The notes under the pieces: generated by a model
Databases searched by the model: none
Seen by the model: only the letters and a program-made list of their open reading frames with translations
Told to the model about the DNA's origin: nothing
Shown: positions 31,373 to 56,882 of the stretch, piece by piece
Numbering within the stretch: the stretch's first letter is position 1
How the letters are laid out: each line of letters opens with the position of its first letter
Made by a program: the position numbers and the translations under genes
Source of the DNA: a virus
Taxonomy: Duplodnaviria > Heunggongvirae > Uroviricota > Caudoviricetes
Strand: one strand, 5' to 3'
IMG/VR virus record: IMGVR_UViG_3300023179_004209
Coordinates: 167,832-231,831 of that record
Length of the DNA stretch: 64,000 nucleotides

Positions 31373-31388
31373 CAACTTTCTTAAAAAA

Positions 31389-31464: not shown

Positions 31465-31477
31465 ATTATAGATAAAT

Positions 31478-31556: not shown

Positions 31557-31561
31557 AATTC

Positions 31562-31667: not shown

Positions 31668-31672
31668 TAAAA

Positions 31673-31759: not shown

Positions 31760-31764
31760 AAAAA

Positions 31765-31890: not shown

Positions 31891-31891
31891 A

Positions 31892-32368
31892 TTAAATTGT
31901 CAATAAACCTGCGTGAACTTCTCCGTGACAATTATGACATAATAACTCACACTTGTCAACTTCTAATTTTAACTTATCAAAACTAACAGATTGTCCACTA
32001 ATTTGAAAATCTTTTTGTAAAGGATCTTTATGATGAAATGTAAGATTACCAAAATAATTTTTGTATCCACACTTTATACACTTACCGCCTTTATATTCAA
32101 CTAATTTTTGTTTAGTTCTTACTCTCCAATCAACAACGGATTTTACTCTTCTGGTTTTTCTTTCTTCATTCGTTAATTTATTTTTGCCTACCGGTCTAGT
32201 ATTTAGATACTTTATCAGAGTTCCTCTACAATGTCCATATTTTTTTTGACAATCTCTTAAAGAATTTCCATCGTCATAAAATGCTTGAATTTCTTTAAGT
32301 TCAGAATCAGTGATTGTTTTAATCCCCGCTAAAATTCTTTTTTGTTTTATAATATCAGATGTTACCAT
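31892..32368 (-). CDS. HNH endonuclease (free-standing, inside tRNA array)
   Basis: CIKCGY...LTFHHKDP...KCELLCHNCHGEVH motif; N-terminal HTH-like segment. Confidence 0.9.
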   Translation of the reverse strand: MVTSDIIKQKRILAGIKTITDSELKEIQAFYDDGNSLRDCQKKYGHCRGTLIKYLNTRPVGKNKLTNEERKTRRVKSVVDWRVRTKQKLVEYKGGKCIKCGYKNYFGNLTFHHKDPLQKDFQISGQSVSFDKLKLEVDKCELLCHNCHGEVHAGLLTI

Positions 32369-32435
32369 ATAATTAACTTTCTATGTTAATAAATAGGTAA
32401 CAGGTTAACAAAACAATTATAATTTTATTAGAAAA

Positions 32436-32509
32436 TGGCTCCCAAGGAAGGACTCGCACCTTCACAAGAACGTTAACAGCGTTCCGTGCTACTTTGACAC
32501 TACTCGGGA
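32436..32509 (-). tRNA. tRNA-Asn(GTT)
   Basis: Loop CTGTTAA, G73, CCA. Confidence 0.88.
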
Positions 32510-32628
32510 ATTTTTAAAAATTAAACGTTTACTGGATTTCACTATGCTTGTTCCACCTACTAATCATAACCTCGTCAGATTATAACCTTCAATGTCTATC
32601 AGTGTCAATACATTACTTACTACTTCAA

Positions 32629-32701
32629 CTATTGATTCAGATTCGAACTGAATGACTCCTGCATATGGTGCAGTTGCTTTACCAGTTAAGCTACGTTCGT
32701 T
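32629..32701 (-). pseudogene. Pseudo tRNA-Met/Ile2(CAT)
   Basis: D-, anticodon (ACCATAT) and T-arms intact, but the acceptor strands do not pair and there is no CCA. Confidence 0.55.
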
Positions 32702-32726
32702 GCCTTCACCTAATGTATTTGAAAAA

Positions 32727-32804
32727 TGGCATCCACCGTAAGAATCGAACTTACCCACGGGCTTTTGGAGAGCCTGTCGCCTAATCCTTGGAACATTGGC
32801 GGAT
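32727..32804 (-). tRNA. tRNA-Trp(CCA)
   Basis: Loop CTCCAAA, G73, CCA. Confidence 0.82.
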
Positions 32805-32814
32805 ATACTATAAA

Positions 32815-32891
32815 TGGTAGTCGCATGGGGATTTGAACCCTATTCTCCATCTTGAGAGGATGGTGTCCTATCACACATAGACGATGCGACC
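32815..32891 (-). tRNA. tRNA-Glu(CTC)
   Basis: Loop CTCTCAA, CCA. Confidence 0.88.
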
Positions 32892-32901
32892 GTTAAATAT
32901 T

Positions 32902-32989
32902 GTGACGAGATTACCCCAGTAGGAATTACCCGGCATGCAAGGGCTCCTTCAATCTTTTGGGTTTAAGTCTCTTTGTTGCCCTCGTCACT
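32902..32989 (-). ncRNA. Putative structured RNA between the Glu tRNAs
   Basis: Terminal 8-bp stem GTGACGAG/CTCGTCAC enclosing a GC-rich interior. Confidence 0.45.
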
Positions 32990-32996
32990 TTTAAAA

Positions 32997-33074
32997 TGGT
33001 AGCCCCACGGGGAATTGAACCCACGATTTGTAGATTGAAAGTCTACCGTCCTATACCCATTAGACGATGAGGCC
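32997..33074 (-). tRNA. tRNA-Glu(TTC)
   Basis: Loop CTTTCAA, CCA. Confidence 0.9.
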
Positions 33075-33085
33075 ATTATATAAAT

Positions 33086-33163
33086 TGGCGCTTCAGTGAG
33101 GATTCGAACCCCAAACTCAACGTTCGTAGCGTTGCGTGATAAATCCATTTTCACCACCGAAGC
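33086..33163 (-). tRNA. tRNA-Arg(ACG)
   Basis: Loop CTACGAA, CCA. Confidence 0.9.
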
Positions 33164-33169
33164 ATAAAT

Positions 33170-33245
33170 TGGTTACCCCACTTGGATTTTCACCAAGGTT
33201 GATGTCTCAGAGAACACATCCGTCCTAAACCTAGACGATAGGGTA
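33170..33245 (-). tRNA. Atypical Glu-like tRNA with 10-nt anticodon loop
   Basis: Glu/Asp-type D-arm TCGTCTA..AGGAC, stem GATGT/ACATC closing GTTCTCTGAG, CCA. Confidence 0.55.
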
Positions 33246-33253
33246 ATTAAAAT

Positions 33254-33332
33254 TGGGGTGTACGGCGGGATTCGAACCCGTATCTGCCAGACTCACAATC
33301 TGGGACATTATTCCAGTTATGCTACATACACC
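33254..33332 (-). tRNA. tRNA-His(GTG)
   Basis: Loop TTGTGAG, G-1:C73, CCA. Confidence 0.9.
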
Positions 33333-38552: not shown

Positions 38553-39398
38553 ATGGATAATAATATAATAAATGATGATATAATAGAAAAAGTTGTAATT
38601 AAGAGTGTGGCAATATATAAAGCAATGAGTGTATTGTCAGCGCCGCCATTTGAAGATAAATTTTTAAACAAACAAGATATATGCCAACAAAACGAGAATA
38701 TACAGAAACAGAGCTTAGAGAAATGCTTGAAAGAAACAGAGCTAAGCAAAGAGAACGAAATAATAGACACTACGAACGACATAAAGAAAAGCTTAGAAAA
38801 GAAAAGTTGGAAAGATATCACGAATCCAAAGGAAAGAAAGAAAGCATACCATAAAGTTTATTATGAAAGTAATAAACAAACTTTAAATGATAAACAAAAA
38901 GCTTACAATAAAGTTAACAAAGATAAAATAAAAGCTTACAATAAAGTTAATGAAGATAAAATAAAAGCGTATAAGAAGGATTATTATCAAGATAATAAAG
39001 ATAAAATAAAAGAATATCTGGATGCTAATAAAGATAAAATAAGAGTTAAAAAAAATAATTATTTTAAAAATAGGTTAAAAACAAATATACAATATAAATT
39101 AAGTCATAATCTAAGAACTAGATTAAATATCGCAATTAATCGTAATCAAAAAATTGGAAGTGCAGTAGATGACTTGGGTTGTAGTATACCAGAACTTAAA
39201 GTTTATTTAGAATCTAAATTCCAGACTGGAATGACTTGGGATAATTGGAGTGATGTTGGTTGGCATATAGACCATATAAAGCCACTTGCATCATTTGATT
39301 TAACAGATAGAAAACAATTTCTTGAAGCTTGTCACTATACCAATCTACAACCATTGTGGGCTAAAGACAATCTAATTAAAAGTGATAAGTTAATATAA
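38553..39398 (+). CDS. HNH endonuclease (copy 1)
   Basis: LGCSI..LES.F..GMTWDN..WHIDHIKPLASFDL..CHYTNLQPLWAKDN. Confidence 0.85.
   Translation: MDNNIINDDIIEKVVIKSVAIYKAMSVLSAPPFEDKFLNKQDICQQNENIQKQSLEKCLKETELSKENEIIDTTNDIKKSLEKKSWKDITNPKERKKAYHKVYYESNKQTLNDKQKAYNKVNKDKIKAYNKVNEDKIKAYKKDYYQDNKDKIKEYLDANKDKIRVKKNNYFKNRLKTNIQYKLSHNLRTRLNIAINRNQKIGSAVDDLGCSIPELKVYLESKFQTGMTWDNWSDVGWHIDHIKPLASFDLTDRKQFLEACHYTNLQPLWAKDNLIKSDKLI
38681..38854 (+). CDS. Overlapping alternate-frame basic peptide in HNH copy 1 (57 aa)
   Basis: MPTKREY...HYERHKEKLRKEKLERYHESKGKKESIP; same frame offset as in copies 2 and 3. Confidence 0.6.
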   Translation: MPTKREYTETELREMLERNRAKQRERNNRHYERHKEKLRKEKLERYHESKGKKESIP

Positions 39399-39421: not shown

Positions 39422-39676
39422 ATGACTAAGAATGAACTTAAGCAATTGATTAAAGAAGTTATTAATGAAACATTGACGGTTGAGAATTATGAGGATGGTA
39501 TTAAAGATGTCAAAGACAGAATGGCATATTTGGCGTTGAGAACGCAAGAAAAGGATTATATTAGTAAGAGTAAGCAAAGTAGTAGTCCTATCAAGAAGCA
39601 GCATTATATGGATATGTCCAAGCAAGTATTGGATAAAGCACTTGCAATTTTAAAGAAGCATAAAGTAATTGATTGA
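39422..39676 (+). CDS. Hypothetical protein, possible internal head protein
   Basis: 84 aa; MTKNELKQLIKEVINE N-terminus. Confidence 0.7.
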   Translation: MTKNELKQLIKEVINETLTVENYEDGIKDVKDRMAYLALRTQEKDYISKSKQSSSPIKKQHYMDMSKQVLDKALAILKKHKVID

Positions 39677-39680: not shown

Positions 39681-40340
39681 ATGATTAAGTTAAAAGACAT
39701 ATTATTAGAAGGTAAGCCGTCAAGCATTTTTGTTCCAAGAAGGTTGGAAGATAGAGTTGAGCGGATGATTAAAAACTATATTCGTAATGGTAGCAAAGGT
39801 AACTTAAGTTTAAGTGACTTGAAATTAACTAAGTTACCTGAGATATTAAAGGATATAGATGTTGGTGGAAGTTTTGTTTGTAGTGGTAATTTGTTAACAT
39901 CATTAAATAATTTACCTAAATATGTTGGTAAAAGTTTTTACTGTGATAATAATAAATTGACATCATTAGAAGGTATTCCTGCATATGTAAGTGGTAATTT
40001 TGTTTGTAGTAATAATTTGTTAACTGAATTACCATCTATTTTAAAAGATATAGATGTTGAAAAATTTTTTAATTGTTTTAATAATAAGTTAACATCACTG
40101 AATAATTCACCTAAGAGTGTTGGTGGAAGTTTTTACTGTGGTCATAATCAATTAATTAGTTTAAAAGGTGCTCCTACATATGTTGGTAAAAATTTTGTTT
40201 GTAGTAATAATCTATTAACATCATTGGATGGTGTTCCTAAGTTTGTTGGTGAAAATTTTATATGTAGATTTAATCCAGTGAGATTTACAGAAGAACAAGT
40301 AAGAGCAGTATGTGAGGTCAAAGGACATATATTTGTATGA
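39681..40340 (+). CDS. LRR-like repeat protein 1 (MIKLKDILLE tag)
   Basis: 22-aa LTSLxGxPxxVGxxFxCxxNx repeats. Confidence 0.85.
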   Translation: MIKLKDILLEGKPSSIFVPRRLEDRVERMIKNYIRNGSKGNLSLSDLKLTKLPEILKDIDVGGSFVCSGNLLTSLNNLPKYVGKSFYCDNNKLTSLEGIPAYVSGNFVCSNNLLTELPSILKDIDVEKFFNCFNNKLTSLNNSPKSVGGSFYCGHNQLISLKGAPTYVGKNFVCSNNLLTSLDGVPKFVGENFICRFNPVRFTEEQVRAVCEVKGHIFV

Positions 40341-41113
40341 TTAAACTTAAACAAATACTATTAGAGAATACCGCACCAGATATCTTTGTTCCAAGGAGAA
40401 TGGATGACAGACTTGAGCGGATGATTAGTGTTTATATTCGTAATGGAAGTAAAGGCGGTTTAAATTTGGCAAATAAAAATTTGACTGTATTACCTGCAGC
40501 ATTAAAGGATATAACTGTTAACGGATATTTTGATTGTAGTGATAATAATTTAACTACATTAGAAAACAGTCCTAAGATTGTTAATGGAACTTTTAATTGT
40601 AAAGAAAATTTGTTAACATCATTAAAAGGTGCGCCTATTAGTGTTAGTGAAGGTTTTATTTGTAGTGACAATAAATTAACATCACTGGAATTTACGCCTA
40701 GTAGTGTTGGTGGAAATTTTGGTTGTAGTCATAATTATTTAACATCATTAAAAGGTGCGCCTGAGAGTATTAGTGGGACTTTTAGTTGTAATGATAATAA
40801 GTTAACATCATTGGAGGGTGCGCCTAAGAAGGTTGGTAAAAGTTTTAGTTGTGCTAATAATCTATTAACATCACTAGAAGGTGCGCCTAAGAAGGTTGGT
40901 GAGGGTTTTTATTGTGGTTCTAATAAATTAACATCACTGGTTGGTGCTCCTCGTACTATTCCTGGATATTTTGCTTGTAATGATAATAAGTTAACATCAC
41001 TAGAAGGTGCGCCTAAGGATGTTAATGAATTTTGGTGTAGTGATAATCCAGTTAAATTTACAGAAAAACAAGTAAGAGCTGTATGTAATGTTTGGGGATA
41101 TGTATTTTTATGA
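40337..41113 (+). CDS. LRR-like repeat protein 2 (MIKLKQILLE tag)
   Basis: Same repeat family; ATGA coupling. Confidence 0.85.
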   Translation: MIKLKQILLENTAPDIFVPRRMDDRLERMISVYIRNGSKGGLNLANKNLTVLPAALKDITVNGYFDCSDNNLTTLENSPKIVNGTFNCKENLLTSLKGAPISVSEGFICSDNKLTSLEFTPSSVGGNFGCSHNYLTSLKGAPESISGTFSCNDNKLTSLEGAPKKVGKSFSCANNLLTSLEGAPKKVGEGFYCGSNKLTSLVGAPRTIPGYFACNDNKLTSLEGAPKDVNEFWCSDNPVKFTEKQVRAVCNVWGYVFL

Positions 41114-41574
41114 TTAAGCTTAAAGACATATTATTAGAAGGTAAGCCGTCAACTATTTTTGTTCCAAGAAGGATTGAGGATAGATTTGAGCGTAGAATTA
41201 GTCTTTATATAAAAAATGGTAGCAAAGGGTCATTTGATTTACAATATTCAAATTTAACTAAGTTTCCTGAAATATTGAAGAATGTAGATGTAGGAGGATA
41301 TTTTGATTGTAGTCATACTAATTTAACATCATTAGAAAATAGTCCTAAAAGCGTTAGTGGGGATTTTTATTGTGTAAATAATAAGTTAACATCATTGGTT
41401 GGTGCGCCTAAGATTGTTGGTGGTGATTTTTGGTGTAGTTATAATTTATTAACTACATTAGAGGGTGCTCCTAAAGTGGTTGGCAAAGATTTTTTTTGTA
41501 ATGGAAATCCAGGTAATTTTACATCGGAACAGGTAAGAGCTATTTGTGATGTTAAAGGAAGGATAATCGTATGA
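41110..41574 (+). CDS. LRR-like repeat protein 3 (MIKLKDILLE tag)
   Basis: Same family; start revised to the ATGA overlap. Confidence 0.85.
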   Translation: MIKLKDILLEGKPSTIFVPRRIEDRFERRISLYIKNGSKGSFDLQYSNLTKFPEILKNVDVGGYFDCSHTNLTSLENSPKSVSGDFYCVNNKLTSLVGAPKIVGGDFWCSYNLLTTLEGAPKVVGKDFFCNGNPGNFTSEQVRAICDVKGRIIV

Positions 41575-41972
41575 TTAAACTTAAAGAAATATTATTAGAG
41601 AATACCGCACCAAATATCTTTATTCCTAGAAGAATGGAAGATAGATTGGATAAATACATTCGTCTTTATATAAAGAACGGTAGTAAAGGCAAGTTAAGTT
41701 TACAAGATTTAAATTTAACTGTATTACCTGAAATGTTAAAAGATATAACTGTTAATGGAGATTTTTTTTGTGGTAATAATCATTTAACAACATTAGAAAA
41801 TTGTCCTAAGATTGTTACTGGAGTTTTTGGTTGTAGTAGTAATTTCTTAAAATCACTAGAAGGTGCTCCTAAGTTTGTTGGTGAAGATTTTTATTGTAGA
41901 TTTAATTCAGTTAAATTTACAGAAAAAGATATAAGAGCCGTTTGTAATGTAAAAGGAGATATATTTTTATGA
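41571..41972 (+). CDS. LRR-like repeat protein 4 (MIKLKEILLE tag)
   Basis: Same family. Confidence 0.85.
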   Translation: MIKLKEILLENTAPNIFIPRRMEDRLDKYIRLYIKNGSKGKLSLQDLNLTVLPEMLKDITVNGDFFCGNNHLTTLENCPKIVTGVFGCSSNFLKSLEGAPKFVGEDFYCRFNSVKFTEKDIRAVCNVKGDIFL

Positions 41973-42523
41973 TTAAACTTAAAGATTTATTAACAGAAGG
42001 TAAGTCACCTGACATCTTTATTCCTAGAAGAATGGAAGATAGAGTTGAGCGGATGGTTGCAACTTACATAAGAAATGGTAGCAAAGGTTATTTAAATTTA
42101 AGACAAATGAACTTAAATAAATTACCAGACATATTGAAAAATGTTAATGTTGGTGGATCTTTTAATTGTTCTGTTAATAATTTAACTTCATTAGAAAATG
42201 CCCCTATGAGTGTTGATGGTGATTTTTATTCTAGTGGCAATGAATTAACATCATTGGTTGGTGCGCCTAAGACAGTTGGTGGTGATTTTTATTGTAGTTA
42301 CAATTTGTTAACATCACTAGAAGGTGCGCCTGAAACTGTTGGTGGTGACTTTTATTGTGGTTATAATAAATTAACATCATTAGTTGGTGCTCCTAAATAT
42401 GTTGGTGGAATTTTTGTTTGTAATAGCAATCCTGGTAATTTTACAGAAGATCAAGTAAGAGCAGTGTGTGATGTTAAAGGTGAAGTGGTAGCTTTACCCT
42501 TAAAAAATCCTAAAAAAAGTTAA
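41969..42523 (+). CDS. LRR-like repeat protein 5 (MIKLKDLLTE tag)
   Basis: Same family. Confidence 0.85.
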   Translation: MIKLKDLLTEGKSPDIFIPRRMEDRVERMVATYIRNGSKGYLNLRQMNLNKLPDILKNVNVGGSFNCSVNNLTSLENAPMSVDGDFYSSGNELTSLVGAPKTVGGDFYCSYNLLTSLEGAPETVGGDFYCGYNKLTSLVGAPKYVGGIFVCNSNPGNFTEDQVRAVCDVKGEVVALPLKNPKKS

Positions 42524-42531
42524 AAAAAGTT

Positions 42532-42560
42532 TTGACGGCTGCGGTTCCGTGGTGTAAAGT
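42532..42560 (+). promoter_or_regulatory. Sigma70 promoter, leaderless
   Basis: TTGACG-17bp-TAAAGT, ATG 6 nt downstream. Confidence 0.75.
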
Positions 42561-42566
42561 CTTTGC

Positions 42567-43313
42567 ATGGTTAATGAACTGCTTTCCTTCCAGAAGGGCA
42601 ACGCCAAGCTTGGTAAGAAGATTTATACCTTTTCCATCGTTTCTGGTTACACCTGTCCCTTCGCCAAGGATTGTTTGGCCAAGGTGGACCGTTTGACCGG
42701 CAAGTTGACGGATGGACCTGATACCCAATTTCGGTGCTTTAGTGCTTCCCAAGAAGCTTTGTTTCCTGCGGTGCGTAAAAGTCGGTGGGATAACTTTGAA
42801 AAGATTAAGAATGCTATCAAGAATAATACCTTGGTTGAACTGATTCTGAATAGTATTCCCAAGAAAGCTACTGTTATTCGTGTTCATGTTGCTGGTGATT
42901 TCTTTAGTCAAGCTTATTTCAATGCTTGGATGGAAGTAGCTAAAAAGCGTACTGATATTATCTTTTATGCTTATACCAAGAGCATTGGTTATTGGGTTCA
43001 CCAACTTAATAACCTTAATAACATTCCCAATAACTTTAAGTTGAATGCTAGTTATGGTGGTGCGCAAGATAGTTTGATTGAACAGTATAACTTGAAGAGC
43101 GTTAAAGTTGTTTATAGTGTTGAAAAGGCTGGTGATATGGTGATTGATCATGATGATACCAGTGCTTTTATGCAGGATAAGTCGTTTGCTTTGCTTCTCC
43201 ATGGTGTTCAGCCTAAAGGCAGTGAGGCTTCTAAGGCTTTGAGTGTGTTGAAGAAGCAGGGAATTCACGGATATGGTAAGAAGAAGGATATTCGTGAATT
43301 GGCGGTTGGTTAA
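42567..43313 (+). CDS. Phage GP88-like protein
   Basis: GNAKLGK, TCPFAKDC, CFSASQE, RVHVAGDFF and YAYTKS motifs. Confidence 0.75.
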   Translation: MVNELLSFQKGNAKLGKKIYTFSIVSGYTCPFAKDCLAKVDRLTGKLTDGPDTQFRCFSASQEALFPAVRKSRWDNFEKIKNAIKNNTLVELILNSIPKKATVIRVHVAGDFFSQAYFNAWMEVAKKRTDIIFYAYTKSIGYWVHQLNNLNNIPNNFKLNASYGGAQDSLIEQYNLKSVKVVYSVEKAGDMVIDHDDTSAFMQDKSFALLLHGVQPKGSEASKALSVLKKQGIHGYGKKKDIRELAVG

Positions 43314-43358
43314 TTTATATATTAATAAGATTTAACAGTCATATATTTATAATGATAT

Positions 43359-44051
43359 ATGGCTAAAGTAATAGAAGGTGATGTAAGTTTAGAAAGTCTT
43401 TATTTAAAAGATATACCTGACATATTAAATGGTGTTGCCGTTAATGGTTATCTTTATTTATGTAACAATAAATTAAGTTCATTAAATAATTGTCCTATTA
43501 GTGTCGGAGGCAAGTTTGAAGTATTTAAAAATAAGTTAACATCATTGATTGGTGCGCCTAAAGTTGTTGGTAGTGACTTTGATTGTTATCATAATCTATT
43601 AACTTCATTAGAAGGATGTCCCCAAAAAGTAGGAGGAGAATTTGATTGTAGTCGTAACAAGTTAATATCATTAGAAGGTGGACCCGTTGAAGTTGGAGGA
43701 GCTTATGCGTGTAGTTATAACAGATTAACATCATTAAAAGGTGCTCCTAGAATTATTCACGGAAATTTTCTTTGCAGTAACAATAATTTAATAACATTGG
43801 AAGGCGCACCTTGGAAGGTTGGACTTGGTTATAGTGTTTTTAGATGTAGATTTAATAAAATTAGATCATTAATTGGAGCTCCTGAAGTTGTTTATGGAGA
43901 GTTTGATATTAGTAATAATCCTGAATTAGAGTCATTGGAAGGTATTCCTAAAAAAGTTACCGGAGACTTTATGTGTCATGCGTGTAAAGGTAAGTTTAAT
44001 AGAAAACAAATTGAAGCGGTATGTGATGTAGGCGGTACAATTTACTATTAA
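43359..44051 (+). CDS. LRR-like repeat protein 6 (untagged)
   Basis: Same 22-aa repeats; N-terminus MAKVIEGDVSL. Confidence 0.85.
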   Translation: MAKVIEGDVSLESLYLKDIPDILNGVAVNGYLYLCNNKLSSLNNCPISVGGKFEVFKNKLTSLIGAPKVVGSDFDCYHNLLTSLEGCPQKVGGEFDCSRNKLISLEGGPVEVGGAYACSYNRLTSLKGAPRIIHGNFLCSNNNLITLEGAPWKVGLGYSVFRCRFNKIRSLIGAPEVVYGEFDISNNPELESLEGIPKKVTGDFMCHACKGKFNRKQIEAVCDVGGTIYY

Positions 44052-44132
44052 CAAATAGTTTATAATTTTAATATTTCCTTGATTTTTATTCCTTGACTAT
44101 ATATTTATATAGACAAGGAAATATTTTTATTT

Positions 44133-44840
44133 ATGGAAAATATACAACACGAATTTTTTATATGGGAAGAAAACAATTATATAGAACAAAAGAAGAACGA
44201 CAAGAACAACAACGAATCCGTTCACTACGACACTACAACAGAAATAAAGAACGACTTAACGCAGAAAGACTGGAAAGATATTACAGATCCAAAGGAAAGA
44301 AGGAAAGTTTATCTCAAAACATACAATAAAAAATATCGCATTTCTAATAGAAAAAAAATAGATAAAACAAAAAAAGAATATTATAATAAAAATAAAGAAA
44401 CAATCAATTATAAAAATAAACTTTATAAAATTAAAAATAAAGATAAGATAAAACTTAATTGTGAACTTTATAAAGATAAAAGAAATGAAAAAAGAAGAAA
44501 AAGAATGAAATGTGATGTTAGTTATAAACTACAAGAATATCTAAGAAATAGATTATATTTAGCATTAAAAAATAATCAAAAAAATGGAAGTGCTATAAGA
44601 GATCTAGGTTGTAGTGTAGAAGAATTAAAACAATATATAGAATCAAAATTTTTACCTGGAATGACTTGGGATAATTATGGTTATTATGGGTGGCACATAG
44701 ATCATATAACCCCACTAGCCAGTTTTGATTTAACAAATAGACAACAATTATTAGAAGCTTGCCACTATACTAATCTACAACCAATGTGGGCTAAAGATAA
44801 TATGACTAAAAGTGATAAAATACTTACAATAATTCAATAA
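44133..44840 (+). CDS. HNH endonuclease (copy 2)
   Basis: Same C-terminal HNH domain as copies 1 and 3. Confidence 0.85.
   Translation: MENIQHEFFIWEENNYIEQKKNDKNNNESVHYDTTTEIKNDLTQKDWKDITDPKERRKVYLKTYNKKYRISNRKKIDKTKKEYYNKNKETINYKNKLYKIKNKDKIKLNCELYKDKRNEKRRKRMKCDVSYKLQEYLRNRLYLALKNNQKNGSAIRDLGCSVEELKQYIESKFLPGMTWDNYGYYGWHIDHITPLASFDLTNRQQLLEACHYTNLQPMWAKDNMTKSDKILTIIQ
44162..44329 (+). CDS. Overlapping alternate-frame basic peptide in HNH copy 2 (55 aa)
   Basis: MGRKQLYR...RNKERLNAERLERYYRSKGKKE. Confidence 0.65.
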   Translation: MGRKQLYRTKEERQEQQRIRSLRHYNRNKERLNAERLERYYRSKGKKESLSQNIQ

Positions 44841-44861
44841 TATTTCTATATTTATAGGAAT

Positions 44862-45593
44862 ATGAAATATACTGACTTTTATCCATCCGTACTACAAGAA
44901 AATAGAAAAGTTGCTAAAGAATTAGTTGTTCAAGGCAAGTTATCACCTACTGATTTTGAAAAATTGGTAGGAATAGATCCATCTCAAACAAAAAAATATA
45001 CAGGATGGATGGCAAAACAATGGATTGCTAAGAATGTTACAGACATTGATGAATTAAGAAACAAGATAGAAGAATATGACGCATTTGTAAAAAATGGTAA
45101 GGCTAAGACAAAAGATATCTATCAATTTCCATCATTTGCTGATTTGAAGAAGGAAGTTGATGAATTGAATGCGGCTGGTAGTGAAAGCAAGAGTGAATTG
45201 CGTGATGATTATGAAGTTATAATGGATACTGATAAGTTACTTATTGCTGTTCCTCATACGCATGAAGCTAGTAGATATTTGGGATTGAGTAAGTTTCAAT
45301 ATAGAGATTGTGAAGGTGGTGGTAAAGATAGTGCGTGGTGTACAACATATAAGGCGCCTGATCATTTCAATGATTATTATTTCAAACAACAAATTACTTT
45401 TTATTATATAAGAATCAAAGATGAAGCAATGATTGAGTTGGCAAAAGCAGCATTTCCAGCAAGAGGTGCAGCAATGGTTGTAACAGCATTATTGGTTGAC
45501 AAGAATGGTAAGGTAAGTAGTTGTTATGACGGCAATGATAAAATGATGAGTGGACCAGAAATAACCAAATTCCGTAAAATCATTGGTATTTGA
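44862..45593 (+). CDS. Hypothetical protein with AWCTT motif, possible internal head protein
   Basis: 243 aa; N-terminus MKYTDFYPSVLQE. Confidence 0.7.
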   Translation: MKYTDFYPSVLQENRKVAKELVVQGKLSPTDFEKLVGIDPSQTKKYTGWMAKQWIAKNVTDIDELRNKIEEYDAFVKNGKAKTKDIYQFPSFADLKKEVDELNAAGSESKSELRDDYEVIMDTDKLLIAVPHTHEASRYLGLSKFQYRDCEGGGKDSAWCTTYKAPDHFNDYYFKQQITFYYIRIKDEAMIELAKAAFPARGAAMVVTALLVDKNGKVSSCYDGNDKMMSGPEITKFRKIIGI

Positions 45594-45597
45594 TACT

Positions 45598-46059
45598 ATG
45601 ATTAAGTTGAAAGACTTATTATTAGAAGGCAAGCCGCCAAGTATTTTTGTTCCTAGAAGAATGGAAGATAGAGTTGAGCGGATGATTAGTCTTTATGTAA
45701 GAAATGGAAGCAAAGGTAATTTGAGTTTAAAAGAGTTGAATTTAACTAAGTTACCTGAGAGCTTGAAGGATGTAAATGTTACGGGTAACTTTCAGTGCAG
45801 TAGAAATAAATTAACAACATTAGAAAATAGTCCTAAAAGTGTTGGTAAAGATTTTTATTGTTACGCTAATAACTTAATATCATTAACTGGTGCGTCTGAG
45901 TTTGTTGGTAATAATTTTGATTGCAGTAGCAATTATAAATTGACATCACTGGAAGGTGCGCCCAAATTTGTTGGTGGAAACTTTTATTGTCTTCGTAATT
46001 CTTTTACAGAAGAACAAATAAGAGCAGTATGTGATATTAAAGGAAAGGTGTATGTATGA
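45598..46059 (+). CDS. LRR-like repeat protein 7 (MIKLKDLLLE tag)
   Basis: Same family; start revised. Confidence 0.85.
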   Translation: MIKLKDLLLEGKPPSIFVPRRMEDRVERMISLYVRNGSKGNLSLKELNLTKLPESLKDVNVTGNFQCSRNKLTTLENSPKSVGKDFYCYANNLISLTGASEFVGNNFDCSSNYKLTSLEGAPKFVGGNFYCLRNSFTEEQIRAVCDIKGKVYV

Positions 46060-46838
46060 TTAAACTAAAAGATTTACTGTTAGAAAATGAAACGCCTAAT
46101 ATCTTTGTTCCTAGAAGGATGGAAGATAGAGTTGAACGGATGATTAGTGTTTATATCCGCAACGGTAACAAAGGCAATTTGAGTTTAAAACAAATGAAGT
46201 TAACTAAATTGCCATCTATATTGAAGAATATAACTGTTGATGGACATTTTGATTGTTATAATAACCTTTTAACATCATTAGAAAATGCGCCTAAAAGTGT
46301 TAGTGGAGATTTTATTTGTTGTAATAATAAGTTAATGACATCATTAGCTGGTGCTCCTAAATATGTTGGTGGAGATTTTTGGTGTTCTTACTGTATGTTA
46401 ACAACATTAGAGGGTGCGCCTGAATTTGTTGACAAAAGTTTTATGTGTTATAATAATAAGTTAACTTCATTGGTTGGTGCGCCTAAAACTGTTGATGGAG
46501 ATTTTGATAGTGACAACAATTTGTTAACATCACTAACAGGTGCGCCTAACAGTGTAGGTGGAGATTTTTATTGTAATTATAATAAATTAACATCACTAAC
46601 AGGTGCGCCTGAAACTGTTGGTGGAGTTTTTCTTTGTAATAATAACCTTTTAACATCATTGGAGGGTGCTCCTATCAGTGTTGGTAGAGATTTTTATTGT
46701 AGTTATAATAAACTAATTTCATTGGAGGGTGCGCCTAAATATGTTGGCGGTGATTTTATGTGTCATCATAATCCTGTAAAATTTACTGAAGATCAAGTTA
46801 GAGCCGTTTCTGAAGTTAAAGGAAAGATATTTGTATGA
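46056..46838 (+). CDS. LRR-like repeat protein 8 (MIKLKDLLLE tag)
   Basis: Eight or more 22-aa repeats. Confidence 0.85.
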   Translation: MIKLKDLLLENETPNIFVPRRMEDRVERMISVYIRNGNKGNLSLKQMKLTKLPSILKNITVDGHFDCYNNLLTSLENAPKSVSGDFICCNNKLMTSLAGAPKYVGGDFWCSYCMLTTLEGAPEFVDKSFMCYNNKLTSLVGAPKTVDGDFDSDNNLLTSLTGAPNSVGGDFYCNYNKLTSLTGAPETVGGVFLCNNNLLTSLEGAPISVGRDFYCSYNKLISLEGAPKYVGGDFMCHHNPVKFTEDQVRAVSEVKGKIFV

Positions 46839-47728
46839 TTAAGCTTAAAGATTTATTGTTAGAAAATGAAACGCCTAATATCTTTGTTCCTAGAAAGATT
46901 GAAGATAGAAATGCTAGATATAATCAAATGACCCAAAAAGCGGTGAATAAAATAATTGATGATTATAACGCTAGCAAAAATAAAGGTGATTTGGATTTAT
47001 CTGCTCCTGGTACTGATGATGATTATTGGGATGAGACCAGTGACTTAAATTTAAGTGGTGAATTTATAATACCAGATACATTAAAAAAAGTAAATGGTGG
47101 ATTGAGTTTAGAAAATAGTAATGTAACTAAATTACCAGACAATTTAGCTGTTGGTGATTTTATTGATGACTATAGTCATTTGGATATTTCTTATTGTAAA
47201 AAATTAAAAGCATTACCAAAAGGTTTAAAAGTTCATAGAATTGACGCTTATAATAGTGGTTTAATTGAAATACCTGATGACCTACAATGTTCTTACCTGG
47301 ATTTACAACATACAAGAGTATTAAAACAATTGCCATTGTTCAAACATTTTATAAAAGGAATTGATTTAGAAGGTTGTAGATTTTTCAAAACATTACCTGT
47401 TGGATTTACCACTGGTAAAGTAACAATTCAAGAAAGTAATTCATTTGTATCAATTCCTAATAATGTAAACATAAAAGAACTTTGGATCAATGACTGTCCC
47501 AAATTTACATCAATTGGTTCAAATTGTACAATTGATCGTTTATTTATTGGTTATAGTTGTACTAGTTTTATTATATTACCAACTGATATTAAAGCAGATT
47601 TACTAAGCCTTACATACATTTATACACCATTAAGAATACAATTATTTAATAAATATAAAACTAAACCAAAAGTTTTAAAAGCATTGAAGATAATGTACCC
47701 TAATGTAAAAGAATTCCAAATTGGTTAA
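46835..47728 (+). CDS. Divergent LRR protein 9 (MIKLKDLLLE tag)
   Basis: NVTKLPDNL and LKALPKGL repeats. Confidence 0.8.
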   Translation: MIKLKDLLLENETPNIFVPRKIEDRNARYNQMTQKAVNKIIDDYNASKNKGDLDLSAPGTDDDYWDETSDLNLSGEFIIPDTLKKVNGGLSLENSNVTKLPDNLAVGDFIDDYSHLDISYCKKLKALPKGLKVHRIDAYNSGLIEIPDDLQCSYLDLQHTRVLKQLPLFKHFIKGIDLEGCRFFKTLPVGFTTGKVTIQESNSFVSIPNNVNIKELWINDCPKFTSIGSNCTIDRLFIGYSCTSFIILPTDIKADLLSLTYIYTPLRIQLFNKYKTKPKVLKALKIMYPNVKEFQIG

Positions 47729-47732
47729 ACAA

Positions 47733-48206
47733 ATGAAAATAATAAAAGGAAATGTTGATTTAGACAGTCTGCATTTGAAAGAATTGCCAGAGATTTTATC
47801 TACGGTTGATAAAATTGAAAGTTATTTCAGTGTAAGTTATAATGTTTTAGAATCATTAAAGAATTGTCCTAAAGAAATTGGTGAATCAGTATATTTTAGT
47901 TATAATCCTAAAATTAAAAATCTCGTTGGTGGCCCTTCAATTGTTGGTAAAGATTATAGTGTAACAAGTTGCTCAGAATTAATTTCCTTGCAAGGAATAC
48001 CAGAAATAATACCTGGTAATTTGAATGTTTCATCCAATTATAAATTGATTGATTTTACATATTTTCCTAAAAAAATTGGTGGAACTTTACAAGTAGGACA
48101 TTATTATGGTGGCAATCGTAGATTTCCAAGAGAATTTACAGAAAAATTCTTTAGATCTATTTGTGATATTGACGGTGAAATAGAAATTTATCGTTGGGAC
48201 TTTTAA
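47733..48206 (+). CDS. LRR-like protein 10 (untagged)
   Basis: MKIIKGNVDLDSLHLKELPEIL resembles protein 6. Confidence 0.8.
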   Translation: MKIIKGNVDLDSLHLKELPEILSTVDKIESYFSVSYNVLESLKNCPKEIGESVYFSYNPKIKNLVGGPSIVGKDYSVTSCSELISLQGIPEIIPGNLNVSSNYKLIDFTYFPKKIGGTLQVGHYYGGNRRFPREFTEKFFRSICDIDGEIEIYRWDF

Positions 48207-48208
48207 AT

Positions 48209-49072
48209 ATGATTAAATTAAAAGATTTATTATTAGAAAATGATGATATCTTTATTCCCAGAAGAATAGAGGACCGTCAAACTAAATACAATAATCGCAC
48301 TCAAAAAGAAGTAAATGCTATTGTTGATGATTTTATTGCTAAGCGTTACAATATGGCATTGACACTATCACCAAAAGATATAGATGATAATGGATATGAA
48401 TATGGTACATTACAACATAATGGAGAGTTTGTTGTACCAGATAAATTAAAACATACACCAAGTTCTTTAACATTAGACGATTCAAATGTAACAAAATTAC
48501 CAGATAATTTAACCATAGGAAATGATATCTATTCATCATTAAATGTTGCTAGATGTTATAAACTACACCAATTACCAAGAGGATTAAAAGTTAAAACTAT
48601 TCATGCGATTTCAAGTGGCGTAAGAGTTATACCAGATGATATAGAATGTGAGTATCTTAATCTTGATAGTGCAGCATATATCACTGAATTGCCATTGTTT
48701 AAACATTATATAGAAACTATTAATTTATTATTTGCGGTTAGATTCAAAACATTACCAGCTAAATTTACCTGCGGTACACTTAATATATGTGATACAATAG
48801 TTGAACACATACCAGCTGATGTCAAAATAAAATATTTAAAAGCATCTCATTGCCCTCGTTTAGTATCAATTGGTAATAATTGTGAAATTGATAATTTGAT
48901 ATTAATAAACAGTGAAGTTGAATCAATTCCTACAGACATCAAATGTAGTAATTATATGAATATCAGAAATACACCATTTGTAAATAAATTTCTAAAAGAA
49001 CATGGTACCCGTGACAAAGTTATGGAAGAATTGAAACGGTCATATCCATATGTAAATGATTTTGGTATATAG
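48209..49072 (+). CDS. Divergent LRR protein 11 (MIKLKDLLLE tag)
   Basis: Paralogue of protein 9 (SNVTKLPDNL, LPLFKH). Confidence 0.8.
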   Translation: MIKLKDLLLENDDIFIPRRIEDRQTKYNNRTQKEVNAIVDDFIAKRYNMALTLSPKDIDDNGYEYGTLQHNGEFVVPDKLKHTPSSLTLDDSNVTKLPDNLTIGNDIYSSLNVARCYKLHQLPRGLKVKTIHAISSGVRVIPDDIECEYLNLDSAAYITELPLFKHYIETINLLFAVRFKTLPAKFTCGTLNICDTIVEHIPADVKIKYLKASHCPRLVSIGNNCEIDNLILINSEVESIPTDIKCSNYMNIRNTPFVNKFLKEHGTRDKVMEELKRSYPYVNDFGI

Positions 49073-51476: not shown

Positions 51477-53660
51477 ATGGGACGAACAATGAATAACGTT
51501 GTGAAATATCCTAAACTTTACGCTTGGACAACTGAACTTTACCAGACCAAAAATTGGTTGAAGATTGGCGATACCATGTTTGATGTTGATAACCGTATCA
51601 GTAATACAGATACAACGGGCATGGCAGAGCCTCCTATCAAAAAGTTGGACTATGATCTTGAAAAGATCTGTATTCGTTATAATCTCCCACCAACTAATAA
51701 AGTTGATAAGTGGATTCATTCTCGTTTGGAAAAAGATTACGGTATCAATCGTATTCGTAATAATCGTGAATTCTTTGAAGTTACTGTTGATAAACTCAAG
51801 AGTATTTTGAATGATCTTGAAATTGGTGTTCTAAGACCCAATAGTTATGCAATGCGTCAAGAACAATCTGATGCTGTTAACAGTGCATTTAACTATTTTA
51901 ACAATGGTGGAAATGAGTTTCTTTTGAATTGTAAGTGCGGTTTCGGAAAGTGTTTTGTAACATATCAACTTATCAAGAAGTTTGGATATGATATGAATGT
52001 TTTGATTCTTACAAGCAAGCCTTCTGTAGAGGATAGTTGGAAGAATGATTTGGATAATCATGTAGACTTTGTTGATTTTAATTATAATTACATTAAAACT
52101 GATAAGGTTGTATTCAAGAATAATAGTACCAACATTGTTTTTGGTTCATTCCAAGATGCTATTGGAAAGAATCAAAATAAAGAAATGAAGTCTAAATGGG
52201 TTGAACTTACAAAAGTTAAGTTTGATCTTTTGATTATTGATGAAGGACATTATGGTGCCAACACTGAAAAGGCGCATGATTTTCTCAAGAATATTTCTTT
52301 TAAACATAAGATGATTCTTAGTGCCACTCCTCTTAAGATGTTGATGAGTGGACGTTATGATCATGAAAATACGTTTACATTTACTTATGCAGATGTTCAA
52401 CATTTGAAGTCTTCATATCCTAATGAAGAGGCTTATAAGTGGCATCCAGTGATGAATGTTTTCACTTATAACATTGGAGATAAAGTCAAAGATTCTCTTG
52501 AATATTATTCTTCAGAAGAAGGACTTACACTCAATAAGTTTTTCAGTAGTGATGACGGTGAAAAGTTTAATCATGCGTCAGCAGTAAATAAATGGTTGGA
52601 TCTTCTTGCAGTTGAAGACGAACGTATTTTTGCATCTCCATTTAACAATAATATTACTGCTGGAAAATTGAATCATACACTTTGGTTCATGGAGTCCGTA
52701 AATTCTGTTATGGCAATGAAACGGACGTTGAATAATCATCCATATTTCTCCAGTTATCGTGTTATTGCTGCTGCAGGTGATAATGATAATGAAGGAAATG
52801 ATACAATTGAATTGGTACGTACTTGTATCAAAAAAAATCCCAAGACAATTACTTTGAGTTGCGGTAAGTTGAATACTGGTGTTACTATCAAAGAGTGGAG
52901 TGGCGTGCTTATGTTGGACGATACCGTAAGTGCAGAAACTTATTGGCAAACTGTATTTCGTGTTGAACGTCAAAATGTAGGTGTAAAGAGTGATTGTTTT
53001 GTATTTGACTTTAATCCCAATCGGTTTTTGAAGGTTACTTACGAATACTGTCAATATACTGCTAAGAAGAATCAATCTACATCCGGTGTCATTCGTGAGA
53101 TGTTGGATACGATGAAGGTGTTTACTTACAGTGATAACAAACTTGTGAAAATGAACAACGAAGAGTTTGTTAAAATTATTGAACACTCTAATACCGTTGA
53201 TTCTATTGTTAGTAAGGCAGCATCTGAGACTATTGTTAATATTGTAGATGTTGATGATATTACTGATGAAGTATTTGAGATTCTTAATCTTTTGAAAAAC
53301 AATGCAGGAAAGAATGTTAAAGTTGTAAACATTACTAAGAGTGATTTGACAAAGGGTAAAAATTCAGTTGTTGTTGGTGGTAATAAATCACCTAATAAGA
53401 AACAAAAGAATTTGTTGAAAGATGTAATTTCAAAGATTACTTCAGTCACTCGTCGTATTCCAACATTTCTGTTTATTGATAACACTAAACGATATGAATG
53501 TCTTAACGATCTGATTACCAAATCTGATGAGGATATGTTTGAAACCGTGGTGGGGATCAGCCTGAGTAATTTTAAAATTTTGGTTGACAACCAAGTTTTG
53601 AATGTTAAACTTATAAATAAGATTATTGAAGCGTACACTTGCGCTTATAATAAAGTTTAA
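51477..53660 (+). CDS. GIY-YIG (T5orf172-like) plus SF2 helicase, restriction-subunit-like (probable start 51489)
   Basis: N-terminal LYAW..LKIGDT..REFFEV; CGFGKC Walker A variant, IIDEGH, LSATP, KLNTGVTI and QTVFRVER motifs. Confidence 0.75.
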   Translation: MGRTMNNVVKYPKLYAWTTELYQTKNWLKIGDTMFDVDNRISNTDTTGMAEPPIKKLDYDLEKICIRYNLPPTNKVDKWIHSRLEKDYGINRIRNNREFFEVTVDKLKSILNDLEIGVLRPNSYAMRQEQSDAVNSAFNYFNNGGNEFLLNCKCGFGKCFVTYQLIKKFGYDMNVLILTSKPSVEDSWKNDLDNHVDFVDFNYNYIKTDKVVFKNNSTNIVFGSFQDAIGKNQNKEMKSKWVELTKVKFDLLIIDEGHYGANTEKAHDFLKNISFKHKMILSATPLKMLMSGRYDHENTFTFTYADVQHLKSSYPNEEAYKWHPVMNVFTYNIGDKVKDSLEYYSSEEGLTLNKFFSSDDGEKFNHASAVNKWLDLLAVEDERIFASPFNNNITAGKLNHTLWFMESVNSVMAMKRTLNNHPYFSSYRVIAAAGDNDNEGNDTIELVRTCIKKNPKTITLSCGKLNTGVTIKEWSGVLMLDDTVSAETYWQTVFRVERQNVGVKSDCFVFDFNPNRFLKVTYEYCQYTAKKNQSTSGVIREMLDTMKVFTYSDNKLVKMNNEEFVKIIEHSNTVDSIVSKAASETIVNIVDVDDITDEVFEILNLLKNNAGKNVKVVNITKSDLTKGKNSVVVGGNKSPNKKQKNLLKDVISKITSVTRRIPTFLFIDNTKRYECLNDLITKSDEDMFETVVGISLSNFKILVDNQVLNVKLINKIIEAYTCAYNKV

Positions 53661-54849
53661 TATGAATTCAATCAGCAAATTGAAGACAAACCAAGAGTTT
53701 GTCAGTAAACTCTATTCTCCATCGTCATCGGAGGTTTATACTCCTTTGTTTTTGGTTAATAGTATGTTAGATAAATTGCCAAATGAGGTTTGGAAAAATC
53801 CCAATTTGAAGTGGTGTGATCCTTTTTGTAAGAGTGGTATTTTTCTTACCGAAGTTGTTATTCGTTTGTTTGATTCTCTTCGTGAATGGGAAAGTGATGA
53901 TACAAAAAGGTACAATCATATTGTTAAAAATATGGTTTATGGATTTTGTTATACTGATATTGGATATCTTGTTACAAAACGAGTTCTTAATGATATTTCT
54001 ATTAAGAATCAATCCGTAAAAGGTAAGTTTGATATTGTTGTAACCAACATGCCGTTTAATGAAACTGGCAACAAATTCAATACTATTTGGGAAGACAACT
54101 GTGACAAGATTCTGTCTAACATTCTTGTCAATGGTGGTTATCTGTTAACTACAGTATTGCCAAAATGGAGAAAGCCCAATAGTGATGTATGGGAATTGTT
54201 TATTAAAAAGAATAAACTTGTACATTCTAAATTTTACGGAATCAATAGTGTGTTTAAAACCGCTGTTGATTTTGTACTGGTGAAAAAGGAAAAGTCATCT
54301 AATTACAACTATGTTATTTGTGATGTCGATGACAATACCTTTACATTTTCCAACAAAGATTGGGATTTTCTTCCTAATTGTAACTTTGATATTGTTCGTA
54401 AGTTGACGGTATCAAATTTGACTGATTCTAACCGATTGAAGGTAATGAAGTGTGAGTATATTTATGATACTCATAAGACAAATAAGAATCAATCTATGGA
54501 AGAGAGTGAATTTCATAAACATCCTTGTTTGCACACCCTTCATAAGGGATATAAGCCTGTATTTTATTATACATCTAAAAAACGTGGACATTTTGGTGTA
54601 CGAAAGGTAATTCTCAGTAGAACTGGTACATTCAGAGCTTATAATGATTATGAAGGTAAGTTGGGAATGACTCAACATTGTTGTGCAATTGTCGTAGACA
54701 ACAATGATATGGCAGAAAAGATCTGTAAATTTATCAATACCGATAAGTTTGAAAAATTTGTTAAAAAAACATTTTGTTGGGCTGGTATTGAAATTGAAGA
54801 TGCTATTCTTTTTTATCTAAAGAATAACTTTTGGGAGAAAGAAGTATAA
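53626..54849 (+). CDS. Eco57I-like N6-adenine DNA methyltransferase
   Basis: EVYTP..LVNSML, WCDPFCKSGIF motif I, FDIVVTNMPF motif IV variant. Confidence 0.75.
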   Translation: MKRTLALIIKFNMNSISKLKTNQEFVSKLYSPSSSEVYTPLFLVNSMLDKLPNEVWKNPNLKWCDPFCKSGIFLTEVVIRLFDSLREWESDDTKRYNHIVKNMVYGFCYTDIGYLVTKRVLNDISIKNQSVKGKFDIVVTNMPFNETGNKFNTIWEDNCDKILSNILVNGGYLLTTVLPKWRKPNSDVWELFIKKNKLVHSKFYGINSVFKTAVDFVLVKKEKSSNYNYVICDVDDNTFTFSNKDWDFLPNCNFDIVRKLTVSNLTDSNRLKVMKCEYIYDTHKTNKNQSMEESEFHKHPCLHTLHKGYKPVFYYTSKKRGHFGVRKVILSRTGTFRAYNDYEGKLGMTQHCCAIVVDNNDMAEKICKFINTDKFEKFVKKTFCWAGIEIEDAILFYLKNNFWEKEV

Positions 54850-56468: not shown

Positions 56469-56882
56469 ACTATCTAAGTATTTGTTATACGCTACATAAC
56501 TGTCAAATACTCTATCAAATATAAATAAATTATTACCACCAGATAATTTAACTCCCTTTTTTGTAACAATAGGTGAGGTTTTATTAATATAAACTATCAT
56601 ATGAATTGATGGATTTTGTCTATGAATCTCCACTCCAAATATCATCAATCCAGTTTTTTTATTTTTAAACTTTTCTTCAAACACTGGTTTACCGCCAGGT
56701 GTTTTTGGATTTGATTGAGATTGATTCCAATCACTAAACCAACTTTTTACATAGGTTAAGTTGTCATCTGATAACTTACTCTTATCATCAATAAAATTAC
56801 GGGTGACTCTCATTCTATCACCGGCATTTTTTAAATATCTAAATGCCTTTTTAATAGTAACAGCTTCAATCAATTCAATCAT
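56460..56882 (-). CDS. Hypothetical protein
   Basis: 140 aa, ATGA-coupled to the upstream gene. Confidence 0.6.
   Translation of the reverse strand: MIELIEAVTIKKAFRYLKNAGDRMRVTRNFIDDKSKLSDDNLTYVKSWFSDWNQSQSNPKTPGGKPVFEEKFKNKKTGLMIFGVEIHRQNPSIHMIVYINKTSPIVTKKGVKLSGGNNLFIFDRVFDSYVAYNKYLDSLR

Follow-up and report, generated by a model that had tools for sequence, protein, structure and literature searches.

Organization of the LRR array

We analysed a 64,000-nucleotide window (bases 167832-231831) of a 295,831-bp phage genome of 31.7% GC, a single IMG/VR virus record that CheckV rates as complete. Positions below are those of the window unless marked as genome positions. Between 39681 and 49072 the window carries 11 open reading frames (ORFs), all on the plus strand, encoding proteins of leucine-rich repeat (LRR) type, the same number of paralogues as an earlier note on this DNA had counted. 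Nine of these proteins begin with a shared ten-residue tag, MIKLKDLLLE or a close variant, which is real, selected as a peptide, modular and associated with T4-type head modules, and for which a role as a putative capsid-targeting leader is the best supported explanation.

The 11 genes fall into three translationally coupled groups (Table 1): LRR A to E (39681-42523), preceded by an 84-residue ORF; LRR F (43359-44051), which stands alone; and LRR G to K (45598-49072), preceded by the gene for a 243-residue protein, p243. Two further genes, one of the GP88 family and one for an HNH endonuclease, break up the array, whose neighbours are accessory genes; the head module is about 55 kb away. A family profile search of the whole genome recovered 15 LRR members, namely the 11 of the window and an untagged array of 4 at genome 264-267 kb. 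A megablast search with the whole array found no match among GenBank phages.

Table 1. Genes of the LRR array and the genes that head or interrupt it (window positions; aa, amino acids)
Feature	Position	Strand	Remarks
84-aa ORF, head of first LRR operon	39422..39676	+	second shared N-terminus MTKNELKQLIKEVINE; promoter-like motif ATATTTATA a few bases before ATG
LRR A, 219 aa	39681..40340	+	MIKLKDILLE and IFVPRRLEDR; L089 orthologue, 86% identity
LRR B, 258 aa	40337..41113	+	MIKLKQILLE; start overlaps stop of A (ATGA)
LRR C, 154 aa	41110..41574	+	MIKLKDILLE; without one-to-one orthologue in related locus L089
LRR D, 133 aa	41571..41972	+	MIKLKEILLE; shortest copy, 2 canonical repeats
LRR E, 184 aa	41969..42523	+	MIKLKDLLTE
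GP88-family gene (PF17338), interrupts array	42567..43313	+	neither LRR nor tagged
LRR F, 230 aa, untagged	43359..44051	+	starts MAKVIEGDVSLESL; own ATATTTATA motif
HNH-type endonuclease paralogue, between array halves	44133..44840	+	HNH motif read in the sequence; no Pfam match
p243, 243 aa, untagged, head of second LRR operon	44862..45593	+	resembles N-terminal domain fused to same LRR type in other phages
LRR G, 153 aa	45598..46059	+	MIKLKDLLLE
LRR H, 260 aa	46056..46838	+	MIKLKDLLLE; copy modelled with AlphaFold2
LRR I, divergent, 297 aa	46835..47728	+	MIKLKDLLLE and IFVPRKIEDR; stable orthologue family
LRR J, 157 aa, untagged	47733..48206	+	starts MKIIKGNVDLDSL
LRR K, divergent, 287 aa	48209..49072	+	MIKLKDLLLE and IFIPRRIEDR; linker two residues shorter than in other copies

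The N-terminal tag is selected as a peptide

As the earlier note had it, nine paralogues start with MIKLK(D/Q/E)(I/L)L(L/T)E. The tag is followed by a variable linker of 3-5 residues and then by IF(V/I)PR(R/K)x(E/D)DR, hereafter the IFVPRR motif; LRR F and LRR J, starting at 43359 and 47733, have neither element and begin at about residue 35 of the other copies. The second motif, previously described as a conserved IF(V/I)PRRxEDR, does follow the tag in all nine copies but is not strict, one reading PRRMDDR and another PRKIEDR. Both L8 and E10 are present in 9/9 tags, i.e. all of them have the (L/I)-x-Glu ending. In the AlphaFold2 models of LRR H and LRR I the tag lies within disordered residues 1-19, ahead of the confident fold.

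In a six-frame scan of the genome, all 10 matches to the tag fell at ORF starts, and the looser pattern M-I-K-L-x-x-h-h-x-E gave, in four other phage genomes, 13 forward matches and none when reversed; a chance origin of the tag is ruled out on these two counts. A Sec or lipoprotein signal peptide was likewise rejected, the tag being, as judged from its sequence, short, charged and devoid of a hydrophobic core.

Among the nine paralogues the tag codons differ at 0.54 of synonymous sites (pS) and at 0.09 of nonsynonymous sites (pN), while pS over the remainder of the gene is 0.45-0.63. Replacements accumulate freely in the linker (pN 0.39), and the IFVPRR motif is constrained (pN 0.05). We also compared orthologues between the window and L089, a related 196-kb contig, and found a ratio of nonsynonymous to synonymous substitution rates (dN/dS) of 0.09 for the tag, on few sites. 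Since synonymous sites in the tag diverge as they do elsewhere while replacements are rare, the tag is selected as a peptide. The earlier note had itself raised the objection that gene conversion of the ATGA junction might fully explain the tag. The same figures remove it: DNA-level gene conversion is excluded because the pS of the tag matches that of the gene remainder, its pN is 0.09, and the 30 nucleotides upstream of the tagged starts are only 46% identical between copies. The broader proposal that the shared start is a functionless by-product of tandem duplication and conversion across that junction can point to the 6 of the 9 tagged genes that overlap the preceding stop codon, with C-terminal codons supplying the next ribosome-binding site, but it does not account for a tag that also heads unrelated genes lacking any such junction, here and in many other genomes; we consider it refuted by the tag's pS and pN and by its presence on unrelated genes, and leave it next to no probability. 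At these junctions the C-terminal V-K-G codons of the LRR genes spell AAAGGA(G/A), 10-12 nucleotides before the next ATG (40326-40336 and equivalent junctions), so part of the conservation of the C-terminus may reflect the ribosome-binding site of the following gene.

The tag heads many unrelated proteins

The earlier note had argued that the tag is modular from its presence on the two divergent paralogues, LRR I (46835) and LRR K (48209). These are weak evidence, because they have in common with the other copies not only the tag but the whole leader, linker and IFVPR motif included, and a predicted helix from residue 22; the modularity itself stands, on unrelated proteins encoded elsewhere. 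At least 13 genes of the genome are clearly tagged and four more carry looser versions, two of the latter in the head module; outside the LRR genes, the clear tags are spread over at least four unrelated families. The tagged genes outside the LRR family start at genome positions 268623, 269473, 269811, 270350 and 153108(-), and looser ones at 81714(-), 136805(-) and 141224(-). They comprise four tandem genes (268623-270850) and the gene for a 260-residue protein that adjoins the head module (152326-153108(-)); the tag or a close variant is also found on an NT5C-like protein and on a 146-residue protein encoded between the protease and the scaffold. Once the tag is removed, the 17 proteins with a tag or looser version fall into 9 families. 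Directly downstream of the capsid gene, a 203-residue protein (genome 136194-136805(-)) starts with MINLTDIVDE (MIKLTDILDE in relatives); its C-terminal half is very basic, with an isoelectric point (pI) of 9.5, and the protein has the look of an internal head protein associated with DNA.

We then scanned IMG/VR with a DNA pattern for M-I-K-L-K-D-h-L-x-E, which yielded at least 120 loci with at least 129 tagged ORFs. Pooled with the genome's own, these give at least 144 tagged proteins of at least 60 residues, which fall into at least 79 families; only 1 of the 129 sampled tagged ORFs encodes an LRR protein. Conversely, the best 120 metagenomic homologues of the LRRs mostly retain both the tag and the IFVPRR motif. 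In another phage lineage, longer LRR homologues carry MKHLKTYQLFE(A/S) in place of the tag, a leader which resembles that of T4 even more closely than the MIKLK tag does, and which in its own contigs also heads many unrelated proteins, including a lysozyme whose gene adjoins an LRR gene. The same LRR body thus stands behind two different leaders, each common to unrelated proteins of its own lineage. The contigs in question are L087, an ENA metagenome contig of 40% GC, and L215-L234, where the leader reads MKHLKTY(Q/K/R)LFE(S/A); the L087 lysozyme has a looser variant, MKHIKLFEGFLKE, and large contigs with this leader contain distant S77-like domains inside ORFs of 660-710 residues.

A second shared N-terminus occurs in the phage itself. 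MTKxELKxLIKE(V/C)xxE, likewise with an (I/L/V)-x-E ending, is found at the start of seven proteins that otherwise differ, encoded at 39422-39676(+), 57212-57574(+) and 56879-57091(-) in the window and at 53178-53840(-), 255520, 257857 and 291090 in the genome. One of these carriers is the first gene of an LRR operon.

Association of the tag with a T4-type head

Matches of the genome's proteins to Pfam profiles mark it as a tailed phage whose head is of T4 type. Its prohead protease, a Peptidase_S77 (gp21) member (genome 142906-143523(-); 94 bits), and its Gp23 capsid protein (136883-138565(-); 194 bits) both score above the Pfam cut-off, and the head module has the order terminase, portal, protease, scaffold, capsid. 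In an alignment with T4 gp21 (5jbl; E 4.6e-16) the protease has His, Ser and Asp where they are expected; at the His and Ser columns the crystallised 5jbl chain has Ala, and the Asp is conserved. We take these three residues to be catalytic and the crystal to be that of an inactive mutant. The cultured phages nearest by capsid protein are Flavobacterium phage immuto (53% identity), in which a prohead protease is annotated, Microcystis phage Mel-JY01 (50%) and Rhodothermus phage RM378 (38%), and because of these identities of 38-53% the phage is placed on a distant branch of the T4 superfamily. Besides its S77 protease, immuto has one tagged gene, immuto35A_41, whose product starts with MIKLIDLLTE.

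The T4 capsid-targeting sequence (CTS) and internal proteins were reportedly treated by Mullaney and Black in 1996. The ten-residue sequence MKTYQEFIAE that the earlier note had given for T4 internal proteins was located in the T4 record at the start of IPII and IPIII, where it ends in I-A-E. Tag and T4 sequence agree in length (10 residues) and in pattern: positions 4, 7 and 8 are hydrophobic, position 6 is acidic and position 10 is Glu. Identity is confined to M1 and E10, and a leader of ten residues is too short to test for homology. The T4 CTS loads proteins, including foreign ones, into the prohead core, after which gp21 removes it (PMC9958956; PMC3012670). In the capsid protein of the present phage, ILLE51 and LLNE60 immediately precede the part matched, in the alignment, to residue 19 of mature gp23*, and (L/I)xE is about 2-3 times more frequent than composition predicts in the scaffold and in the 146- and 203-residue tagged proteins.

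The IMG/VR sample points the same way. Forty-five of the 129 sampled tagged ORFs share a locus with head-gene homologues (mean locus length 8.7 kb); 19 of the 45 lie inside the head module, mostly in the slot between protease and scaffold, which is occupied by the commonest tagged family, and 20 more are at most 5 kb away, while 43/45 are on the strand of the head genes. S77 matches were obtained in 2 of 3 other large tag-bearing contigs. Prediction of a complex between the prohead protease and LRR residues 1-45 gave a score of 0.00, which we counted neither for nor against binding.

Taken together, the phage resembles the T4 system of CTS, IPI, IPII, IPIII and Alt in having a ten-residue leader common to unrelated proteins, an (L/I)-x-Glu end, a gp21 protease and a gp23-type capsid; like the T4 internal-protein genes, the tagged genes look non-essential, evolve fast and vary between relatives. 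The differences are that the leader is MIKLKDLLLE rather than MKTYQEFIAE, that the tagged set (at least 13 genes plus the four looser ones) is far larger than that of T4, that nine of its members form one LRR paralogue family with the second motif, IFVPRR, after a variable linker, that small head-module proteins are tagged here, unlike T4 gp67 and gp68, and that packaging and cleavage are here proposed from sequence alone. Ejection proteins of giant phages (SPN3US and the phiKZ group) and the Dar proteins of P1 offer a further parallel, as many proteins packed in the head, several of them trimmed by a protease, are delivered with the DNA (PMC7411985, PMC5694885, PMC12810830); these proteins are not described as having one short leader in common, no LRR family is reported among them, and the protease sites and head types differ. 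In the searchable literature we found the CTS described only for the T-even phages, along with related work on P1 and SPN3US, and found neither the MIKLKD tag nor an LRR cargo.

The LRR body is a solenoid with variable surface positions

The LRR proteins, 133-297 residues long, consist of the leader, the LRR domain and a short C-terminal cap; no additional domain was found by Pfam or in the AlphaFold2 model. Compilation of 41 repeats gave a period of 21 residues, LTSLEGAPKxVGGDFxCxxNx, and not the 22 originally claimed. The variable repeat number and the hypervariable positions of the original description are both confirmed, with 2 to 8 canonical repeats per copy and with entropies of 2.9-3.4 bits at positions 14, 16, 18, 19 and 21 and of 2.4-2.9 bits at 9 and 10. 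L1, S3, L4, P8, V11, F15, C17 and N20 are near-fixed, and variability is highest at the positions beside F15, C17 and N20. The tandem arrangement, a length within 20-22 residues, the LxxLxLxxN core and a proline-containing connector place the repeats among the short bacterial LRRs (LPX, or YopM-IpaH), whose pattern they follow with one extra residue. In Pfam searches with all 11 proteins the only matches were to LRR families (LRR_4), below the cut-off; in PHROGs, LRR H (46056) matched families of unknown function and LRR I (46835) matched no family.

The AlphaFold2 model of LRR H (260 residues) has a predicted local distance difference test (pLDDT) score of 92 and a predicted template modelling score of 0.84, and is confident from residue 20 on: a cap helix (22-35) is followed by a regular solenoid and then by a C-terminal helix. 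Its first 19 residues are disordered (pLDDT <50), and the IFVPRR motif falls in the low-confidence stretch. The best Foldseek matches in the PDB are the LRR domains of SspH1, IpaH, SspH2 and YopM (probability 1.00; template modelling score 0.5-0.66; 17-25% identity). With a strand at positions 15-16 of the modelled repeat, canonical LRR geometry would put the variable positions on the concave binding face. The model of the divergent LRR I (pLDDT 87) also has disordered residues 1-19 (<50), followed by a long helix (22-46), and shows weak LRR matches only. The latter protein has 227 homologues, the best 120 of which are 71-95% identical at full length, and the tag is invariant in the alignment of this family.

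Like SspH1, SspH2, IpaH, SlrP and YopM, the phage LRRs have short LPX repeats of 20-22 residues, an N-terminal helical cap and a concave target-binding face, and, as for those effectors, entry into the target cell would be by way of an injection machine. They differ from NEL effectors and YopM in the 21-residue period, the Cys at a core position and an identity of only 17-25%; unlike NEL effectors they carry neither the ubiquitin-ligase nor any other enzymatic domain, and their proposed route is the head and tail instead of a type III system. Membership of the NEL effector family (IpaH/SspH/SlrP) is ruled out by the absence of the C-terminal NEL E3 ubiquitin-ligase domain.

In the comparison with L089, identity is 89-95% for the flanking genes and 77-90% for eight LRR orthologues, while three copies here (C, G and H) and four in L089 are without a one-to-one partner. 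Over four orthologue pairs, dN/dS was 0.80 at the variable repeat positions versus 0.33 at scaffold positions. The LRR genes thus turn over between related phages, and, as far as such comparisons indicate, variation at these positions together with copy turnover fits binders under diversifying pressure.

These data also bear on the proposal that the tag is a prohead-core leader whose LRR cargo organises the core or the packed DNA, in the head or during assembly, and has no effector function after ejection. The evidence linking the tag to the head serves this proposal equally well, and most of the putative mature LRRs are mildly basic (pI 7.7-9.1 in 6/9 tagged copies). It does not, on the other hand, predict variation of the concave face, a dN/dS of 0.80 or turnover of copy number; LRR domains of the structural class closest to these are protein binders, and Ip1-3 of T-even phages are inhibitors of defence (PMC12373910). 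We therefore regard a purely head-internal role as improbable.

A promoter-like motif is common to LRR operons and structural genes

The motif ATATTTATA ends 3-7 nucleotides before the ATG in 37 of 380 genes, and its reverse complement does so once. Within the window it lies just upstream of 39422, 43359 and 44862, i.e. at the heads of all three LRR operons. At or near the 3-7 nucleotide spacing it also precedes the portal gene, many genes that are very large and look structural, tagged head-module genes and the tagged cluster at genome position 268623. To judge from this distribution, it may act as a late-type promoter whose mRNAs would be almost leaderless, and its occurrence on both LRR operons and structural genes would therefore place them in one regulatory class, as head loading requires. 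Scans for sigma-70 promoters and intrinsic terminators between 38000 and 50000 gave no more sites than shuffled sequence.

Apparent co-regulation with structural genes, and the fact that LRR proteins are surface adhesins in many bacteria, would also suit external virion parts (adhesins or decoration) with the leader as a propeptide removed at maturation. Against this, the LRRs have no attachment domain or signal peptide and no position in the structural module, the array being about 55 kb from the head module; the conserved Cys in each repeat suits a reducing compartment; and the tag is found on dozens of unrelated small proteins, not all of which can be surface parts. We thus consider an external location very improbable.

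Untagged relatives and neighbouring genes

The four-gene tandem array outside the window lies near a PcfJ-like gene and encodes the same LRR type (hmmsearch E 1e-33 to 1e-44), without the tag and without the IFVPRR motif; LRR F and LRR J start like its members. The nearest counterpart of that PcfJ-like gene in the window is p243 (Table 1), for which the protein atlas gave a weak PcfJ lead, and a BLASTP comparison of p243 with the genome's PcfJ-like protein was not significant. p243 does match the N-terminal domain of metagenomic proteins of 435-448 residues whose C-terminal half is the same LRR type (BLASTP E 8e-6 to 3e-4), which suggests that the p243-like domain is functionally paired with the LRRs.

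Three paralogous HNH-type endonuclease genes, all on the plus strand, flank or interrupt the LRR arrays (38553-39398, 44133-44840 and 57707-58435) and may contribute to their rearrangement; at the matching position before the array, L089 has a gene annotated as GIY-YIG in precomputed Pfam data. Elsewhere, the window contains a tmRNA gene (22551-22935(-)) and 21 tRNA genes (23227-33331(-)), one of which (33170-33245) is called with the four-base anticodon CTCT.

Discussion

Proteins packaged in the head and injected with the genome open a phage's attack on host defences, and detailed knowledge of them is confined to a small number of model phages. In the scheme that we favour for the phage described here, the tagged LRR genes would be expressed late, together with the structural genes, and the leader MIKLKDLLLE would carry each LRR into the scaffolding core of the prohead, as the T4 CTS does. 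The gp21-type prohead protease would then cut after Glu10, at the (L/I)-x-E site, and the mature LRR solenoids of 14-33 kDa would stay in the filled head and exit with the DNA at infection. Inside the host they would bind host proteins through their fast-changing concave face. The most plausible targets would be first-line defences or takeover targets, as with T4 Ip1-3. Each of these T4 proteins blocks a different GmrSD (type IV) restriction enzyme (PMC12373910), and it is by this analogy that first-line defences seem the likeliest targets of the LRRs. Packaging, cleavage after Glu10, ejection, the targets and the anti-defence role are what we infer. As far as the sequence can be made to speak, each testable prediction of the capsid-targeting reading agrees with what was found. 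We hold that the tag alone acts as a capsid-targeting leader with greater confidence than the whole chain, in which the nine tagged LRRs are capsid-loaded, protease-trimmed and ejected binder proteins; the chain as a whole we judge probable, if modestly so.

Several observations weigh against this scheme. First, 6 of the 15 LRRs of this type in the genome are untagged, and the fusions to a p243-like domain, together with these untagged copies, imply that at least part of the family can do without the tag and functions with a partner domain. Second, within the LRR family the equally conserved IFVPRR motif always accompanies the tag, so the leader could serve a function specific to the family. 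Third, the tag is carried by enzymes resembling those of nucleotide metabolism (NT5C-like here; P-loop kinase-, Nudix- and HAD-like elsewhere), for which a packaged role is not obvious. Fourth, a search for S77 in one complete tag-bearing genome gave no match, (L/I)xE is a short and common motif, and the small T4 core proteins gp67 and gp68 have no CTS (PMC9958956). Fifth, IMG/VR favours contigs with structural hallmark genes, and the enrichment near head modules may be inflated; the slot between protease and scaffold is informative despite this bias. Finally, the literature searched for virion data on this lineage, Mel-JY01 and immuto held nothing relevant, and the nearest cultured phage has a capsid identity of 53%.

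Part of this evidence would be expected if the tag were a genuine peptide signal unrelated to the capsid, for instance an aid to translation or folding, a signal for timed degradation or a docking element, and if the LRRs acted in the cytoplasm of the producing cell. The untagged LRRs and the p243-like fusions, the tag on cytoplasm-type enzymes (exonuclease-like ones elsewhere included) and the complete tag-bearing genome without a detectable S77 protease all speak for such a signal. Left unexplained by it are the gp21-type (L/I)-x-E ending and the T4 CTS layout, the tagged small genes between protease and scaffold, and the promoter-like motif common to tagged operons and structural genes; a version acting at the RNA level is further opposed by the synonymous variation in the tag. 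We consider a non-capsid signal unlikely, although it is the alternative to be taken most seriously.

The targets of the three T4 internal proteins were assigned only recently, and all are type IV restriction enzymes (PMC12373910). Should capsid loading of the LRRs hold, the phage would inject at least 9 variable LRR binders, a type of cargo that we did not find described in the literature searched. We venture, tentatively and with some doubt, that T4-type phages of a widespread aquatic lineage may maintain small LRR binders as a diversifying repertoire, loaded into the capsid by a lineage-specific tag, and may begin infection with a cocktail of ready-made binders against host factors. Such a cocktail would be for phages what injected LRR effectors are for bacterial pathogens, and the injected cargo of uncultured T4-type phages could then be listed from sequence alone. 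Phages outside the T-even group could be engineered with the short tag as a packaging handle, and the LRR scaffold would be a source of ready-made binders, the targets of which could reveal nodes of defence or takeover in freshwater bacteria.

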